Of a stretch of DNA of 32,000 nucleotides, positions 17,844 through 24,472 are shown piece by piece (position 1 is the first letter of the stretch; each line of letters opens with the position of its first letter). The position numbers and the translations under genes are program-made. Under the pieces are notes generated by a model. It saw nothing but the letters and a program-made list of their open reading frames with translations. It ran no database searches and was not told where the DNA came from. The stretch covers positions 2,820,001 to 2,852,000 of the forward strand of contig NC_008340.1 in the NCBI RefSeq assembly GCF_000014785.1, in the 5' to 3' direction. This stretch comes from Alkalilimnicola ehrlichii MLHE-1. GTDB taxonomy: Bacteria; Pseudomonadota; Gammaproteobacteria; Nitrococcales; Halorhodospiraceae.

Positions 17844-17916
17844 CGGTCCTCCATGAGTGCGGCCAGCGGCGGGATTGGGCTGGGCCGCCGGCGCCCCCTA
17901 TCCTATACTGCCGGCC

Positions 17917-18528
17917 ATGCATGTGCCGCCGGAACAGGACCTGGAACCGCTGCTGCCGCAGATCCTCACCGTGTTGCGGGCAAACCCGGACGGGCTTAGC
18001 GAATTCGAGCTGGTCCGCGCCCTGGACGAGGCGGCCGTGGGCCCCTTCCGGCGCGAGGCCCTGCGCGATACGGCCGAACTCTTCCGCAGCCACTTCCTGC
18101 TCTTCCACTGCCTCTACCGCCTGCGCCAGCGACTGCGCGAGCGGGGCGAGGACCTGCTCATCCACTGCACCCGCATTGCGCTGGCCCCGGGGCCGTCGCC
18201 GGCGGCGTCCACCAACGCGCCCGCCACCCCGTTGAGCGTCGCCGACCCGCTGGCGGCCTACTACTTGGACCTGAAGCACCTGGCCGCCGCCGACCTGGCC
18301 AGCGTGGAGGCCATGCTCGCCGACGGCTGGCGCCGGATCCGCCGGGGCGGCCATCGCGAGCAGGCATTGGCTGAACTGGAACTCCGTGAACCGGTGAGCG
18401 ACAAGCAGATCCGGCGCCAGTACCGGCGCCTGGTCATGCGCCACCATCCTGACCGCGGTGGCGACACGACCCGCATGCAGCAGGTGGTCAGGGCCATGGA
18501 GACCCTGGGCCTGGCCCGCAATCGCTGA
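17917..18528 (+). CDS. DnaJ-related protein (C-terminal J domain)
   Basis: C-terminal IRRQYRRLVMRHHPDRGGDTTRMQQVVRAMETL carries the HPD motif. ATG at 17917 (MHVPPEQDLEPLLPQIL...). No SD; TATACT ends 7 nt before the ATG. Confidence 0.75.
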   Translation: MHVPPEQDLEPLLPQILTVLRANPDGLSEFELVRALDEAAVGPFRREALRDTAELFRSHFLLFHCLYRLRQRLRERGEDLLIHCTRIALAPGPSPAASTNAPATPLSVADPLAAYYLDLKHLAAADLASVEAMLADGWRRIRRGGHREQALAELELREPVSDKQIRRQYRRLVMRHHPDRGGDTTRMQQVVRAMETLGLARNR

Positions 18529-18748
18529 CACCCCCCGGGCGGCCCCGACCGCCAACCCATGTATTCAATATTTATTATTTTACCGGTGGGCACTATGTAC
18601 CACCGCCCCCTCCCTGCGTCCCGATAGCCTTTCAACCGTGCGCCGTTGCCCCCCACACCAGGGCGAGAGCGCATCAAAGGATGGAGGAGCACCGGGCCGC
18701 TGACACGCCCCGCGATGCTCCGCTACAGCGGTACAAGGGGAGTCCATA

Positions 18749-20062
18749 ATGAAACGTCTTACCGCAACCACTGTTCGCGGCCTGATCACCGGCGCGGGTC
18801 TTGGGGGCCTGCTGATCCCGGGGCTGGCCCTCGCCACCAACGGCTACCAGCTCACCGGCCTGGGCAGCCACGAAAAGTCGCTCGGCGGGGCGGTCACCGC
18901 CGCACCGCGCAGCGCGATGACGGCCATCAGCAACCCGGCCGGTATCGGCCGCATCGGGTCCCGCGTCGACTTCTCCATGGAGGTCTTCAGCCCCGAGCGG
19001 AGCACCGACTTCCGGGCCCTCGGGGGCGAGAAGGTCACCAGCGACACCGACACCTATATCATTCCGAGCCTGGGCTGGGCGGCCCCCATCACCGAAGACC
19101 GCCGCCTGTGGTTCGGCGGGGGCTTCTTCGGCACCTCCGGGCTCGGTGTCGATTACGCGGTGACAGACGTCATGCCCAACGGGCAGCTCATGAACGGCCA
19201 CACCCAGTGGGACGGCTACAGCTCGATCTTCTTCGCCCAGATGACGCCGGTGCTTTCACTGCGGGTGAACGACCGCCTCACCGTTGGCGCCGGCCCGGTG
19301 CTCGCGCGCCAGCAGGTGGCCCTGAAACAGCGCTTCCACGACATGCCGGTCGGGCCGGGCATGGTGATGGACACCAACTTTGACCTCAGCAAGGCCAGCA
19401 GCGCCCTTGGTGCTGGTGTCAGCCTGGGCCTGATCTACGACCTTGGCACCCGGTGGCGGCTGGGCGCCACCTACCAGAGCAAGATCCACTTCGAAGACCT
19501 GCGCTACAACCTGGCCGCCGGCGACATTCATGGCCAGGACAGCAACGGCGAGTTCGTCGACGGCGAGGCGGGCACCTGGCGGCTGGGCCTCGACTACCCG
19601 CAACAGGCCAGCGTGGGCCTGGCCTGGGCGGCAAACAACACCCTCACCCTCTCCGCCGACGTGAAGTGGCTCAACTGGTCCGACACCATGGATGAGTTGA
19701 CCGTAAAGGGCCCCAATGGCAGCCGCTTCGCCCTGGACCCCGGCTGGGACGACCAGTGGGTCTTCGCCGCCGGCGCGGAGTGGGTGGTGAACCCCGAGCG
19801 GCTCACCCTTCGCGCCGGCGTCAACTACGCCGAATCCCCCCTCGATGACGAGGACGTGGCCACCAACCTCCTGCTACCGGCGGTGGTGGAACGCCATGTC
19901 GCCCTCGGCGGCACAGTGCGGATGGTCAACGGCTGGGACCTGGGCTTCCACCTCAAGCACGCCCTGAAGAACAAGCAGACCCAGGACGGCGGCCCCTTTG
20001 ACGGCGTCTCGGTGGAGATGGACCAGTGGTCCGCCGGACTCAATATCGGCTACGCCTTTTGA
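18749..20062 (+). CDS. Outer-membrane transport protein of the OMPP1/FadL/TodX family
   Basis: Signal peptide ending ALA-TNGYQL. Family-typical N-terminal GYQL..G....S.GGA.TA......A..NPAGIG. Alternating beta-strand pattern with C-terminal ...GLNIGYAF (terminal Phe). RBS AAGGGGA. Confidence 0.85.
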   Translation: MKRLTATTVRGLITGAGLGGLLIPGLALATNGYQLTGLGSHEKSLGGAVTAAPRSAMTAISNPAGIGRIGSRVDFSMEVFSPERSTDFRALGGEKVTSDTDTYIIPSLGWAAPITEDRRLWFGGGFFGTSGLGVDYAVTDVMPNGQLMNGHTQWDGYSSIFFAQMTPVLSLRVNDRLTVGAGPVLARQQVALKQRFHDMPVGPGMVMDTNFDLSKASSALGAGVSLGLIYDLGTRWRLGATYQSKIHFEDLRYNLAAGDIHGQDSNGEFVDGEAGTWRLGLDYPQQASVGLAWAANNTLTLSADVKWLNWSDTMDELTVKGPNGSRFALDPGWDDQWVFAAGAEWVVNPERLTLRAGVNYAESPLDDEDVATNLLLPAVVERHVALGGTVRMVNGWDLGFHLKHALKNKQTQDGGPFDGVSVEMDQWSAGLNIGYAF

Positions 20063-20102
20063 CCCCTAGCGACAGCAGCCAAGCCAGACAGGAGAGAGCA
20101 CC

Positions 20103-20648
20103 ATGAGCACGACCCGCGAGCAAACCACGGTGGTGGAACACCCCACGCAGGAACAGCCGGAACCGCAGCCCAAGCGCATGTCCATCATTGTCACCAAGGG
20201 CACACTGGACTGGGCCTATCCCCCCTTCATCCTGGCCACCACCGCGGCGGCCATGGACGTCAAGGTCGACCTGTTCTTCACCTTCTACGGCCTGCAACTG
20301 CTCAAGAAGGACCTCAGCCACCTGCGCATCTCTACCCTGGGCAATCCGGCCATGGAGATGCCGATGATGGGCATGCACATGGCCATGCCCAATCTGGTCT
20401 CGGCACTGCCCGGGGTGGACCGAATGGCCTCGGGGATGATGCGCCGGCTGATCAAAAAGAAGGGCGTCGCCTCGGTGGAGGACCTGCGCCAGACTGCCCT
20501 GGACTGCGATGTCGGCATGGTCGGCTGCCAGATGACCCTGGACCTGTTCGAGTTCCGGCGCGAGGACCTGATCGACGGGGTGGAACTGGCCGGCGCCGCC
20601 ACCTACATGGAGACGGCGCTGAACTCCGACATCAATCTCTACGTCTGA
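20103..20648 (+). CDS. DsrE2/DsrE3-like sulfur-relay protein (DsrE/DsrF-like family, COG2210 type)
   Basis: MSIIVTKGTLDWAYPPFILATTAAAMDVKVDLFFTFYGLQLL plus the conserved active-site context VGMVGCQMTLDLF...DLIDGVELAGAATYME. AGGAGAGAG RBS. It starts 40 nt after the FadL stop. Confidence 0.8.
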   Translation: MSTTREQTTVVEHPTQEQPEPQPKRMSIIVTKGTLDWAYPPFILATTAAAMDVKVDLFFTFYGLQLLKKDLSHLRISTLGNPAMEMPMMGMHMAMPNLVSALPGVDRMASGMMRRLIKKKGVASVEDLRQTALDCDVGMVGCQMTLDLFEFRREDLIDGVELAGAATYMETALNSDINLYV

Positions 20649-20722
20649 GCGCTATTCCCTTTGGGATAGTGTGACCGCCCATGGGCCGCCGTATACTCGA
20701 AATCGATCCCTGTTGCAGCAAG

Positions 20723-20748
20723 GGGTGCCGCCGCCGCAGGCGGCACCC
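20723..20748 (+). promoter_or_regulatory. 10-bp GC-rich stem-loop in the dsrE2-to-RHH/tusA spacer
   Basis: GGGTGCCGCC-GCCGCA-GGCGGCACCC, 27 nt upstream of the 20775 ATG, with no U-tract. An imperfect dyad CTATTCCC-TTT-GGGATAG lies at 20652-20669, and TATACT at 20692-20697. Confidence 0.35.
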
Positions 20749-20774
20749 GCATCATCGATGGAGAGGGCGTCTGC

Positions 20775-21416
20775 ATGGCCGTGGTCAGCGATCGACTGAT
20801 GGAGGAACCCCGGGCCCGGGCGGGCGAGGCCGACAGCGGCCTGCGCCGTGGCCCCAGCCCGCTGGAGCGCCTGTTCAGCCTGTGTGCCCCGGAGGACCGC
20901 AAGGGGTACGAACCCGGACGACGCTCACTGCGCATCGACGGCCACTGCACCACCATCCGCCTGGAGCAGGCCTTCTGGTCCGTATTGGAGGAGATCTCCG
21001 CCGAGGAGGGCATGACCATCCCGGAGATCATCGCCCAGGTGCAATACCACTGTCAGAGCGTCAACGACAAGAATATGGCCAGCTGCCTGCGGGTGCTTTG
21101 CCTCAAGTACATCAACACCTGCGCCTGGGCCACACCGGGCGAGGGCACTCCCGGGACGCCAGCCCTGCCCCAGCCCGGCCCGCGCATGGAGTTGGACACC
21201 CGGGGCCTGAGCTGTCCGCAACCGATCCTGCGCACCAAGAAGGCCCTGCGCGGCCTGGAGCCGGGCGAGGAACTCCGGGTGATCACCAGCGACCGCGGCT
21301 CGGCCATGGACTTTGACGTGTTCTGCCAGGCCATGGGCCACCGTCTGGTCTGGGAGCGGGAGACCGAAGAGGCCTACGTCTTCCTGCTGCAGAAGGGCAC
21401 CGGCGGCGCGGTCTGA
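20775..21416 (+). CDS. Fusion protein: N-terminal ribbon-helix-helix (RHH_4/COG4321-like) domain, Pro/Gly linker, C-terminal TusA/SirA sulfurtransferase domain
   Basis: Single uninterrupted frame. RRSLRIDGHCTTIRLEQAFWSVLEEISAEEGMTIPEIIAQV...NMASCLRVLCLKYI resembles RHH_4. The linker is ATPGEGTPGTPALPQPGPR. MELDTRGLSCPQPILRTKKALRGLEPGEELRVITSDRGSAMDF is a canonical TusA with a CPxP cysteine. GGAGAGGG lies 8 nt upstream of the ATG at 20775. Confidence 0.75.
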   Translation: MAVVSDRLMEEPRARAGEADSGLRRGPSPLERLFSLCAPEDRKGYEPGRRSLRIDGHCTTIRLEQAFWSVLEEISAEEGMTIPEIIAQVQYHCQSVNDKNMASCLRVLCLKYINTCAWATPGEGTPGTPALPQPGPRMELDTRGLSCPQPILRTKKALRGLEPGEELRVITSDRGSAMDFDVFCQAMGHRLVWERETEEAYVFLLQKGTGGAV

Positions 21417-21442
21417 GGGCCGCCGGTGCGCCAGGGGCGGGG

Positions 21443-22669
21443 TCAGAAGCTGTACTTCGCCGAGACCTGCACGCGGTTCAGCTCGCCGCTGTCCTCACCA
21501 TAGGCGTCCTCGCCCTCGATCTCCCGCTCGGCCCAGATGTACTCCACGCCCACGTCCACGTTCTGCACCGGTGTATAGATCAGGTTGAGGTGCACCGACT
21601 GGATCTGCTCGTTGGCCGTCTCCGGGGCGCTGCTGGGGTTGTCGGCCTTGGCCAGGCTGTAGACCAGGCTGCTGCGCAGGGTCTGATTCCACCAGTGCCG
21701 ATAGGACACATACCCACCCCAGATGCTCAAGGAGTCCAGATTGCCCTGGTCGTCGATAAAGGCATCGGGAAAGGCGTTCAGGCCGAGGTAACGGCCGAGT
21801 CCGTCGCCGTAGTTGAGCTGAAAGCGGACATCATTGCGCCCTCCGGCCTTCACCACGCCGGTCAGGCTGAGTGCGCCCACCCACTCGTCGTCGTCCACGT
21901 CGGCGCCGAGTTCCCGCGAGGTGCTGCGATCGACCCGGAGATTCCGGGCGACGCCAGCCAGGGAGCCGTGGCCCCAATCCCCCGAGACGTTGTAGCGGGC
22001 GACGAACTCCGGCCAGCGGTCATCCCGGGCGTTGCGGATGGCATCGCCCGGATCGGCCTCACCCAACGTCGCCTCGGAGGCCAGGGTGGTGAAGGGCTGT
22101 TCCACCGCCAGCATCAGGCTGTTGCCCTGCTCCAACGGCAGGGTGTAGCGCACCTGGATATTGCGATTGAACACCGTGCCGGCGGGCCCGACGAAATCCA
22201 GGGTCTCCGGTTTGGTGGTAACGTTGTAGAAAGTGCCCCAGGTCTGCCCGGCCAGCCAGTTGCCCAGCTGACCGAAGGCGTGCCGTAGCCGCGGGGGCTG
22301 GTTGCCCACCAGGCGGTTGCGGTCGATGGCGGCATCCTCGAGAAAGTCCACTTCGAGAAACGTGGTCAGATCCCCCAGGCCGGTGGGCGTCTGCGTGCGC
22401 AGGTTGACCCGACTCTCACGCACGCTGTAGCGGGTGACATTCCGTGAGTCCTCCTGCCCGTCCAGCGGGATCAGGGCGGGGATCATGAAGGCCTCGCTGC
22501 GGTCGTTGGCGGCACGGTTGGTCACATCACTGAAGTGGGCATCCATCTTCACGTAGCCGCCGAAATCGACGGTGGTCTCCGCCCACGCCGGTGAGATGAT
22601 CAGCCCCAGCAGTGCGGCGGTGGCCACCCCCAGGCAAACCGGTTTTTTGGTATGGCATGTGCTGCGCAT
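21443..22669 (-). CDS. Outer-membrane porin (DcaP-like beta-barrel)
   Basis: From the ATG at 22669 (AGGAGA 8 nt upstream): signal peptide ...IISPAWA-ETTVDFGGYVKMDAHF. LRHAFGQLGNWLAGQTWGTFYNV..PETLDFVGPAG is typical of this porin family. The C-terminus is SAKYSF. Confidence 0.65.
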   Translation of the reverse strand: MRSTCHTKKPVCLGVATAALLGLIISPAWAETTVDFGGYVKMDAHFSDVTNRAANDRSEAFMIPALIPLDGQEDSRNVTRYSVRESRVNLRTQTPTGLGDLTTFLEVDFLEDAAIDRNRLVGNQPPRLRHAFGQLGNWLAGQTWGTFYNVTTKPETLDFVGPAGTVFNRNIQVRYTLPLEQGNSLMLAVEQPFTTLASEATLGEADPGDAIRNARDDRWPEFVARYNVSGDWGHGSLAGVARNLRVDRSTSRELGADVDDDEWVGALSLTGVVKAGGRNDVRFQLNYGDGLGRYLGLNAFPDAFIDDQGNLDSLSIWGGYVSYRHWWNQTLRSSLVYSLAKADNPSSAPETANEQIQSVHLNLIYTPVQNVDVGVEYIWAEREIEGEDAYGEDSGELNRVQVSAKYSF

Positions 22670-22899: not shown

Positions 22900-23949
22900 A
22901 TGCCCAGCAACAGCAGACGACAGTGGGGCAGCGCCAGGATCGCGGCGCTGGCTGTGGCCCTTGCGGTGACGGGGCAGGCCCACGCCCGCCTGCCGGTGGT
23001 CGACCCGCCGCTGATGCCCGAGGCGCCGGCGGATTACCGCGCCGCCAGCCTCTCCGGGGGGCCCGGGAAGGACGGCATCCCGGCCATCGACAACCCCGCG
23101 TTCCAGGCCGCCTCGGAGGCCGACGCCCGGCTCGACGACGGCGACCGGGTGGTGGGCCTCTACCATGACGGCGAAGCCCGGGCCTATCCCCAATCCATCC
23201 TGGTCTGGCACGAAATCGTCAACGACACCGTGGCCGGCGAGAACATCGCCGTCACCTACTGCCCCCTCACCGGTACCGCCCTGGGTTACCTGCGCGGCGA
23301 GACCACGCTGGGCGTCTCCGGCCGCCTGGTGAACAGCAACCTGATCATGTTCGACCGGGCCAGCGACAGCCTCTGGCCCCAGATACTGAGTGCCGGCATC
23401 GGCGGCCCCCACGAGGGCCAGGGGTTGGAGGAAGTGCGCGTGGTCTGGACCACCTGGGGCCGTTGGCGCGAGCGCCACCCGGACACCCGGGTGCTGACCA
23501 CGGACACCGGCTACCTGCGCAATTACAACCGCGACCCCTACGGCGGGTATAACCCGGTCCGGGGCTATTACGCCCCCAACGCATCGCCCATCTTCCCGGT
23601 CCGCCCGAGCAGCGACCGCTACCCGCCGAAAGAGGAGGTCTTCGGCATCCGCACCGCCAGTGCCGCGGTGGCGCTGGATCGGGACCACCTCGCGGCGGCG
23701 GGCGTGGTGAACATTCCGCTGGGTGATGACCACCTGGTGGTGGTCCACGACCCCGGCCTGGATACCGGTTGGGCCTTTCGTGCCGACGAGGCGGTGGCGC
23801 TGGACCCGACAGCGCTGCGGTTCGGGCCCGAGGGCCCGGTACACCCGGAGTTGGCGGACCTGGAGCGAGTGAACGGCTTCGAGGCCATGTGGTTCGCCTG
23901 GTACGCCTTCTATCCGGATACGGTGGTGGTCGATGGCGCTGGCCGCTGA
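22900..23949 (+). CDS. Secreted DUF3179 domain-containing protein
   Basis: Signal peptide MPSNSRRQWGSARIAALAVALAVTGQAHA. GKDGIPAIDNPAF...RVVGLYHDGEARAYPQSILVWHEIVND...IAVTYCPLTGT...MFDRASDSLWPQ matches my recollection of DUF3179 (PF11376) conserved blocks. Confidence 0.8.
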   Translation: MPSNSRRQWGSARIAALAVALAVTGQAHARLPVVDPPLMPEAPADYRAASLSGGPGKDGIPAIDNPAFQAASEADARLDDGDRVVGLYHDGEARAYPQSILVWHEIVNDTVAGENIAVTYCPLTGTALGYLRGETTLGVSGRLVNSNLIMFDRASDSLWPQILSAGIGGPHEGQGLEEVRVVWTTWGRWRERHPDTRVLTTDTGYLRNYNRDPYGGYNPVRGYYAPNASPIFPVRPSSDRYPPKEEVFGIRTASAAVALDRDHLAAAGVVNIPLGDDHLVVVHDPGLDTGWAFRADEAVALDPTALRFGPEGPVHPELADLERVNGFEAMWFAWYAFYPDTVVVDGAGR

Positions 23950-24472
23950 TCCGGTGCCCCGCCGCGCCGCCCTGGCCGCGGGGCTGGGCTACGCGGCGCT
24001 TTATCTCTGGCTGACCGGTGATCTCGACCTCACGGGCGACACGGCCTGGCGCTGGCAGTTGGGGCGCCTGGAATGGGCACATGTAATCCAGGCACGCGCG
24101 CCGTTTCTCTACGAAGCCGTTGCCCTCGTCCAGGCGGGCCGCCTGATGTGGCTCATCAGCCCGCTGAACCTGCTGATCACCGCCCTGCTTGCGGGCCTGC
24201 TGGCCGCCAATGTGCACGGCATGCTGACCCTGCGCCGTGGCGCGGCCACCCATTGCCGCAGCGGGCGGGGGGGCGCGGCCAGCGGCGCCCTGCCGGCATT
24301 GCTGGCCGGCTCCGCCTGTTGCGCCCCCGGCATCCTGCTGCTGTTGGGCATTCCGGCCCTGGGGGCCTTTGTCGGGTTGTTCGCCTGGCTGATCCCCCTC
24401 TCCCTGCTGCTGCTGGCCCTGAGCCGCGGCTGGCAGCGGTGGTGGGGCGCGCCCCCGCTCCTCGGGCGCTAG
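23933..24472 (+). CDS. Hypothetical 4-TM inner-membrane protein with intramembrane vicinal cysteines (MerT-like SACC motif)
   Basis: Four hydrophobic segments. LLAGSACCAPGILLLLGIPALG places Cys129-Cys130 (nt 24317-24322) inside TM3. The ATG overlaps the DUF3179 gene end by 17 nt. The stop shares CTAG with the convergent kinase gene. Confidence 0.6.
   Translation: MALAADPVPRRAALAAGLGYAALYLWLTGDLDLTGDTAWRWQLGRLEWAHVIQARAPFLYEAVALVQAGRLMWLISPLNLLITALLAGLLAANVHGMLTLRRGAATHCRSGRGGAASGALPALLAGSACCAPGILLLLGIPALGAFVGLFAWLIPLSLLLLALSRGWQRWWGAPPLLGR

Follow-up and report, generated by a model that had tools for sequence, protein, structure and literature searches.

A ribbon-helix-helix domain fused to TusA in Alkalilimnicola ehrlichii, a candidate member of a sulfur-linked regulator family

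Sulfur-oxidizing bacteria must fit the expression of their sulfur import and trafficking genes to the supply of sulfur, and several repressors tied to such genes have been described. CstR of Staphylococcus aureus, a member of the CsoR family, is a thiol-based repressor of the cst operon, which encodes multidomain sulfurtransferases including one with a TusA domain (CstA). The ArsR-type repressors associated with YeeE-like SoxT transporters (sHdrR and SoxR of Hyphomicrobium denitrificans; SqrR/BigR and PigS) are likewise Cys-based, and are encoded beside genes for YeeE/PmpAB-type transporters, TusA, DsrE and rhodaneses. How these regulators sense external or imported sulfur is described as poorly understood in a study of SoxT transporters and signaling (PMC11582611), in which the terms “ribbon”, “RHH” and “DsrE2” do not occur. 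Here we describe a gene lying in 32,000 nucleotides of Alkalilimnicola ehrlichii MLHE-1 (contig NC_008340.1, positions 2,820,001 to 2,852,000; hereafter the window), in which a Cys-bearing ribbon-helix-helix (RHH) domain is joined to a TusA domain directly downstream of dsrE2. Based on a comparison of about 150 related loci, we propose that this gene is a one-polypeptide version of a conserved pair, a putative RHH transcription factor with conserved Cys and the sulfur carrier TusA, and, from its co-location with them, that the regulator probably switches sulfur-import and sulfur-trafficking genes in sulfur-oxidizing bacteria. No paper in the literature that we searched links an RHH protein with YeeE, TusA or DsrE2 or describes such a regulator; an earlier note on this DNA remarks that the sulfane-sulfur regulators CstR, SqrR/BigR and FisR use other folds.

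Domain architecture of the fusion

The gene, its parts and its upstream neighbor are placed on the window as follows:

20103..20648, plus strand: dsrE2 (NCBIfam NF047629, 225 bits, cutoff 210; E 2.6e-49 with Pfam DrsE_2)
20761..20768, plus strand: Shine-Dalgarno (SD) sequence GGAGAGGG of the fusion gene, read from the sequence, 5' of the ATG at 20775
20775..21416, plus strand: rhh::tusA fusion gene, an open reading frame (ORF) of 213 amino acids (aa) without interruption
20859..21122, plus strand: Cys-bearing RHH_4 domain, aa 29-116, drawn from Pfam, subfamily alignments, AlphaFold, PDB 3kk4 and CopG
21123..21185, plus strand: flexible Pro/Gly-rich linker, aa 117-137, with a predicted local distance difference test (pLDDT) score below 50 at residues 120-132
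21186..21395, plus strand: TusA domain, aa 138-207, with the codon of active-site Cys147 at 21213-21215

The earlier note had read here one uninterrupted 213-codon frame holding two domains, a Cys-rich RHH half, a good ribosome-binding site before the ATG at 20775 with none before an internal ATG at 21186, and a DsrE2-like gene directly upstream, and all of this was recovered. The fusion gene is intact in a single reading frame; no purine-rich SD was found on inspection of the sequence in front of the internal ATG; and Pfam returns the two families that the note expected: aa 49-112 match RHH_4 (PF13467; 82.2 bits, cutoff 25, E 2.7e-23) over positions 3-66 of the 67-position model, and aa 138-207 match TusA (PF01206; 78.6 bits, cutoff 28.6, E 3.2e-22). 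Six Cys lie in the N-terminal half (C37, C58, C93, C104, C109 and C116). The start Met is aligned across all homologs, and the protein is 100% identical to the A. ehrlichii MLHE-1 protein on record (3.28-Mb contig), which the database annotates only as “ribbon-helix-helix domain-containing protein” or “SirA family”. Both domains and the same frame are kept in seven other protein clusters (204-214 aa, 57-83% identical), and the eight fused clusters in total come from independent assemblies and sources. The linker differs in length and sequence between these homologs. Structure predictions, made for monomers only, gave for the full-length protein (72-sequence alignment) two confident domains with pLDDT mostly above 90, separated by disordered residues 120-132.

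By its score, its two-layer alpha/beta fold and its CPxP Cys alike, the C-terminal half is a member of the TusA/SirA family. Its model matches E. coli TusA (3lvj_C) in Foldseek with a TM score of 0.90, a root-mean-square deviation of 1.1 Å and 37% identity, as well as the YeeD structures 8j4c and 8k1r, and the active-site C147, in a CPQP motif, is kept in all eight fusion clusters. The half scores 58.9 bits against the tRNA-thiolation TusA equivalog NF001423, below its cutoff of 78, and by that criterion is a TusA-family domain rather than an ortholog of E. coli TusA.

The RHH_4 half opens with N-terminal helices bearing C37, continues with a ribbon strand (H57-E64, with C58), helix A, a G79-M80-T81 turn and helix B ending at C93, and closes with helix C, which bears C104 and C109; the full-length model places the strand at 57-64 and the two following helices at 65-78 and 82-92. 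Its stand-alone relatives constitute a distinct RHH_4 subfamily with the motifs F..C, HGHSTTIRLE, HDxC and NLASCLRVxCLKY, and 138 of its 152 members have all four of the Cys C37, C93, C104 and C109 (window numbering); P0066, the one generic RHH_4 member inspected, has none of the four. Judged by these alignments, conserved candidate sensing Cys are present in the subfamily, and since the signature belongs to the whole stand-alone subfamily, the RHH domain itself is likely to be a sensor. Position 58 (codon 20946-20948) is Cys only in nine proteins of the Ectothiorhodospiraceae clade, namely its fused forms and the split Halorhodospira form, and Ser in 138 other subfamily members, including three independent fusions.

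A comparison of the subfamily profile with CopG using hhalign (65% probability, E 6e-5) recovered the strand, helix A, G-x-T turn and helix B in register, pairing TTIRLE...EEGMT...IPEII of the window protein with LTITLS...EMGLS...KSAMI of CopG; both the Pfam assignment and the order of strand, helices and turn shared with a canonical member point to the RHH superfamily. In the CopG register C58, T60 and R62 alternate with the hydrophobic I61 and L63 on the ribbon strand. With the strand oriented by what we take to be the contact residues of CopG, this alternation would put C58, T60 and R62 on the DNA-facing side of the ribbon. The model of the RHH half alone has a pLDDT of 73, falls below 50 at residues 26-37 and loses its strands; such a loss in an isolated monomer would fit a fold that depends on dimerization through an antiparallel two-stranded ribbon. 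The only solved RHH_4 homolog, PDB 3kk4 (BP1543 of Bordetella pertussis), matches at 34% identity (sequence E 1.3e-21, fold E 8.9e-5).

Recurrent fusion and conserved gene neighborhoods

In a scan of one genome per species, members of the subfamily were found in 232 species, from which the best 80 loci were taken for context; fusion and adjacency were counted in 88 loci. Among the latter, rhh and tusA are fused in 12 and adjacent but separate in 48; in the remaining 28, rhh is not directly followed by tusA. In a profile search against 1.84 billion representative proteins, only one 50%-identity cluster matched the fusion over its full length, the other hits being RHH-only (~100-140 aa) or TusA-only. 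On these counts the fused state is a derived minority form of a widespread two-gene pair: the architecture that the earlier note had described is correct, but it is not the basic design. Outside the window's clade we observed three unrelated fused loci (L022, L029 and L068). In the sisters of L022 a stop codon comes right after ...KYINLGA, and L022 reads on through the former spacer. As the nearest relatives of each of the three are all split, at least four independent fusions by stop-codon loss have occurred. Recurrent gene fusion is classical evidence for the joint action of two proteins, and this recurrence therefore suggests that the RHH and TusA proteins act together physically. L029, like the window gene, has no internal start signal, and all TusA in these two organisms would therefore be tethered. 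Conversely, in L001, from a Halorhodospira metagenome-assembled genome (MAG) nested in the fused clade, an in-frame TAA in the linker leaves two genes.

We observed that the subfamily always occurs beside genes for YeeE-type transporters, TusA, DsrE2 or rhodaneses. dsrE2 adjoins the RHH gene in about 60 of the 88 loci, and the order dsrE2-rhh-tusA is seen in about 55 of the 80 reference-genome loci (Ectothiorhodospiraceae MAGs, Magnetospirillum, Thalassospiraceae, Magnetovibrio and Hyphomicrobiales), so that a conserved dsrE2-rhh-tusA module spans Alpha- and Gammaproteobacteria. A full-length YeeE/YedE (“Sulf_transp”) gene is divergent from the module in 31 loci, and in L007, a relative of the window locus, yeeE, a rhodanese gene, dsrE2, rhh::tusA and dsrE follow in a row. 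In SUP05/Thioglobus, Sedimenticola, Chromatiaceae, Arenicellales and Methyloligellaceae a lone rhh is divergent from an operon with two YeeE halves, a TusA and a rhodanese, a layout typical of a regulator and its target; tusA is present in the neighboring operon in most loci of this divergent type too. No other regulator gene is conserved in the rhh neighborhoods compared.

Candidate operator and other intergenic elements

Upstream of the putative operon to which the fusion gene belongs lies a sequence motif that recurs with the family:

18561..18579, minus strand: weaker second motif-like site AATAATAAATATTGAATAC (13.0 bits, third-best match in the window), 25 bp from the main site
18586..18604, minus strand: 19-nt pseudo-palindrome GGTGGTACATAGTGCCCAC (consensus GGTRGTAYWTATTGCCNAC), 144 bp upstream of the FadL-like start codon
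18749..20062, plus strand: gene for an outer-membrane channel of the FadL/TodX family (Pfam Toluene_X, E 2.8e-32), first gene of the putative operon

The motif GGTRGTAYWTATTGCCNAC, with the dyad core GTAG-N10-CTAC, is near-identical from one rhh/yeeE intergenic region to another, even in lineages that are very distant from each other, and its edges are sharp, the flanks holding no information. The weight matrix was built with the window and 45 further loci held out. The window site scores 25.7 bits, against maxima from 300 window shuffles with a mean of 9.2, a 99th percentile of 17.2 and a highest value of 23.2; 25 of the 46 held-out loci lie above the shuffled 99th percentile (about 0.5 expected), all 25 with the site upstream of rhh, and the window is the top-scoring locus among them. 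In most loci the best match occupies an equivalent regulatory position: alpha-type loci have it between yeeE and dsrE2, gamma-type loci between rhh and the yeeE halves, and L007-L010 ahead of the gene that opens the long operon; where a FadL-like gene is present, the motif is upstream of it or divergent from it. An exact search of a metagenome collection with the motif alone returned 64 matches, 27 of which have a Cys-RHH gene within 23-298 bp, and in 3 more the motif abuts YeeE halves where the contig ends; together they come from about 24 independent lineages, spanning GC contents of 38-71%. Once duplicates are merged, the other 34 leave about 12 sequences that are unrelated and for the most part lie within long ORFs, about the chance number estimated beforehand. 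One human-gut coding sequence carries the exact 19-mer on 16 contigs with near-identical flanks and no RHH or YeeE gene nearby (among them L093, L095, L098, L110, L122, L126-L128, L133, L134, L142, L144-L146 and L149), and is a coincidental coding match sampled repeatedly.

Two features bear on the sign of regulation. In several lineages no more than about 30-50 bp separate the motif from the rhh start codon, and in the gamma-type loci among the metagenome matches (those of L089-L147 that have an RHH context) the motif is preceded, at a constant spacing of about 16-17 nt, by a TAnnnT hexamer; if this hexamer is read as a -10 box, the motif would fall just downstream of the transcription start. 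From both positions we infer a repressor. A reading of the motif as a sigma-54 promoter was rejected, as its GG-to-GC spacing is 8 nt and not the 10 nt of the consensus. The segment 18529-18748, which the earlier note had listed for binding assays, contains the 18586-18604 site, which on present comparisons we regard as the best operator candidate of the locus, ahead of the dyad and the hairpin described below. The weaker site at 18561-18579 resembles degenerate variants in L003, L012 and L006 and overlaps a palindrome at 18562-18577; this is weak evidence for a second motif site. An AT-rich island TGTATTCAATATTTATTATTTTACC (18560-18584), in very GC-rich surroundings, abuts the 19-nt motif and holds both this weaker site and the palindrome.

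Three further elements lie between dsrE2 and the fusion gene:

20652..20669, no strand: dyad CTATTCCC-TTT-GGGATAG (half-site TATYCCC) that may serve an internal promoter as a second operator
20692..20697, plus strand: inferred -10-like hexamer TATACT, 22 nt after the dyad
20723..20748, plus strand: GC-rich hairpin in the 5' leader, with a perfect 10-bp stem, a 6-nt loop and no T tract

Of the dyad and the hairpin, both proposed as targets in the earlier note, the dyad exists and is conserved, in one clade only, and the hairpin is not conserved. In the form TATYCCC-N3-GGGRATA the dyad occupies the same place upstream of rhh in all Ectothiorhodospiraceae-clade loci (L001, L003, L006, L007, L010 and L012), in spacers that are otherwise not alignable, and it is absent from the lineages compared outside this clade; as MAFFT misaligned it, the dsrE2-rhh spacers were compared by eye. 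Its arms are kept by sequence with no compensatory change, which favors a protein-binding site at an internal promoter over an RNA hairpin. The RNA-hairpin reading was set aside: the dyad folds in the window, but the z-score of the region is only -1.87 and no compensating mismatches were found. A search for the dyad over all loci with a loose regular expression proved too unspecific. In every clade member the dyad is followed, 20-23 nt on, by a TAnnCT hexamer, though the scan with a consensus sigma-70 promoter did not call TATACT and gave nothing useful. The hairpin is the only one of its kind within the window, its stretch is absent from the related spacers fetched, and it probably stands outside any conserved mechanism; no intrinsic terminator was called in 18400-21600, the hairpin included, and the intergenic elements had no Rfam match at E up to 1. 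The clade that has C58 is also the one with this extra dyad, and some of its members have a degenerate family motif. Each relative has, at a similar position between the dyad and TAnnCT, a GC-rich palindrome of different sequence (approximately L003:5940-5975, L012:4880-4915, L006:935-965 and L001:945-975), which may reflect covariation or a second binding element.

The FadL-like gene adjoins dsrE2-rhh and shares the 19-nt motif in 11 loci (the window, L029, L044, L048, L049, L054-L057, L059 and L067); its product may be an outer-membrane entry for hydrophobic sulfur species within the same regulon. Several other neighbors were noted. Directly 3' of tusA, 34 loci encode a secreted protein of ~138 aa (e.g. 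L019:5548-5964) that contains the CxxC motif CAWCAKW but matches nothing in Pfam, and which is followed in 17 loci by an HbpS-like protein (e.g. L034:5948-6445). In relatives from the Ectothiorhodospiraceae, the opposite strand immediately beyond tusA carries an HSP70-GrpE-DnaJ-like cluster (L001:1625-6975; L003:6712-12080) together with a gene for a protein of 707-728 aa without a Pfam match. In the window, a “DNA-J related” gene (17857-18528) is immediately upstream of the 19-nt motif. At 22900-24472 the gene for a small, weakly MerT-like membrane protein (E 0.009) comes after one for a DUF3179 protein (E 7.5e-101); this pair is downstream of an opposite-strand DcaP-like porin gene, and no link to the sulfur module was found.

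Proposed mechanism and comparison with known systems

In light of these observations we lean, without strong conviction, towards a sulfur-responsive RHH repressor to which TusA delivers the signal. The RHH domain, as a dimer or tetramer, would bind the 19-nt site at 18586-18604, and possibly also the dyad at 20652-20669, and so repress the operon of the FadL-like outer-membrane protein, dsrE2 and rhh::tusA. Sulfur would enter through YeeE-type transporters, perhaps with the FadL-like channel, and reduced sulfur in the cell would load Cys147 of TusA with sulfane sulfur or thiosulfonate, directly or via DsrE2. The tethered TusA could then hand sulfur to C37, C93, C104 and C109 of the RHH domain, and in this clade to C58 on the predicted DNA-facing side of the ribbon; persulfide or polysulfide bridges formed there would lower DNA affinity and derepress the operon. 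The effect of the fusion would be to make the transfer from TusA to RHH intramolecular. The earlier note had coupled an RHH regulator to TusA as its sensor module. The coupling finds strong comparative support in the conserved neighborhood, the recurrent fusion and the operator-like motif, but TusA is more likely to deliver the signal than to sense it. More tentatively, we raise the possibility of a protein relay that ends on a transcription factor, with TusA loaded by YeeE/DsrE2 giving sulfane sulfur to the RHH Cys, one-component in the fused Alkalilimnicola clade, where C58 would perhaps be modified at the DNA interface.

A number of points weigh against the proposed repressor. The similarity to CopG is modest (the 65% probability given above), and hhalign gave no significant match to NikR (2% probability) or ParD. 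The model of the RHH half alone found no significant match and no canonical RHH in a PDB fold search. 3kk4 was deposited as uncharacterized; a literature search with RHH_4, PF13467 and COG4321 returned irrelevant items only, one of which uses COG4321 for IorA, and the searched literature contains no RHH_4 protein with DNA binding shown or a function published. In L022 and L068, where an internal SD and ATG persist, the fusion may be incidental. L003, L006 and L012 of the fused clade have only a degenerate copy of the motif, the window motif is oriented away from the operon with no divergent gene there, and the motif could belong to a different, unlinked regulator. YeeE/Sulf_transp, though the most constant neighbor of rhh elsewhere, is absent from the window proteins scanned, and the A. 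ehrlichii transporter partner, if any, must therefore be encoded elsewhere in the genome. Finally, the four RHH Cys proposed to receive sulfur from TusA could instead bind a metal or an Fe-S cluster.

This last point leads to the best-surviving alternative, which we consider rather unlikely: the Cys-RHH regulator senses sulfur or redox state alone, through its thiols and low-molecular-weight persulfides or through a Zn or Fe-S site, with tusA just co-regulated and the fusion inconsequential. The four-Cys signature is indeed found in stand-alone RHH proteins, and PMC9952342 states that sulfane sulfur can itself be sensed by Zn(Cys)4 sites. The genes are separate in 48 of the 60 loci with a downstream tusA, but at least four fusions, one of them held in a clade that has diverged to 57% identity, exceed what neutral accident would produce. 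Free TusA may still form from the internal starts of L022 and L068, whereas in the window and L029 it would all be tethered; and against the 28 loci without a tusA directly downstream stands its presence in the operon next to rhh in most loci of the divergent type.

We give distinctly less credence to the alternative that the RHH_4-like domain does not bind DNA and serves as a Cys-rich adaptor or acceptor (for docking, storage or metal) in a DsrE2-TusA relay, the motif then serving another regulator. A gene placed between two sulfur-carrier genes in one operon, four invariant Cys and fusion to TusA by a flexible linker, as in multidomain sulfurtransferases, would suit such a role, but in many lineages rhh is divergent from the transporter operon. 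DNA binding is unproven across the RHH_4 family and the fold search with the isolated domain was uninformative; nevertheless, the Pfam score is that of an RHH_4 domain and the CopG alignment keeps the RHH register, G-x-T turn included, with the polar or basic S/C58, T60 and R62 apparently alternating with hydrophobics on the ribbon strand. Further, the motif accompanies the gene in three arrangements, with no alternative regulator conserved nearby. That the fusion is an artefact of assembly or annotation, through a missed stop or frameshift, is hardly credible: close relatives do have split forms and L001 a TAA in the linker, but the MLHE-1 record is identical, clusters of independent origin keep the frame and both domains, and the internal ATG has no SD.

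If the relay ending on the repressor holds true, SUP05, magnetotactic and purple sulfur bacteria would possess a sulfur counterpart to the phosphorelay and, with it, a persulfide sensor of a new structural class. The family, in at least 232 species, includes ecologically important groups (SUP05/Thioglobus, Sedimenticola, Chromatiaceae, Magnetospirillum and Magnetovibrio) and brings with it a candidate operator and a candidate signal donor, both of them defined. The predicted operator provides a handle for regulon prediction, with the FadL-type outer-membrane channel suggested as a member of the sulfur-uptake regulon, and the A. ehrlichii fusion would place carrier-to-regulator transfer within a single polypeptide.

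Since the sulfane-sulfur regulators known from beside YeeE, TusA and DsrE genes are ArsR-type, CsoR-type (CstR) or FisR, the RHH_4 family would add a new fold class of putative sulfur regulator. The rhd-tusA-dsrE2 cluster of Allochromatium vinosum and the YeeE(TsuA)-YeeD(TsuB) thiosulfate uptake system use the same carriers (TusA, DsrE2) and the same transporter family (YeeE) but, in the descriptions found, have no regulator gene between dsrE2 and tusA. 3kk4 is an RHH_4 homolog of the window domain, yet lacks equivalents of C93 and C104 in the HMMER alignment and has no known function or sulfur context. With CopG, one of the canonical RHH group that also includes Arc and MetJ, the domain shares the beta/helix/turn/helix register, to which the RHH_4 core adds an N-terminal extension and a third helix with Cys. 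NikR likewise combines an N-terminal RHH with a C-terminal signal-input domain in one chain, but its input domain is ACT-like and binds nickel, whereas that of the window protein would be a sulfur-carrier protein. CstR resembles the proposed regulator as a thiol-based repressor tied to TusA-domain proteins; it differs in its all-helical CsoR fold and in that the TusA domain there resides on an enzyme and not on the regulator. The ArsR-type repressors, which like the window regulator are thought to be derepressed upon sulfur import, have a winged-helix fold with two sensing Cys, in contrast to the RHH_4 fold with four conserved Cys and a TusA downstream or fused.

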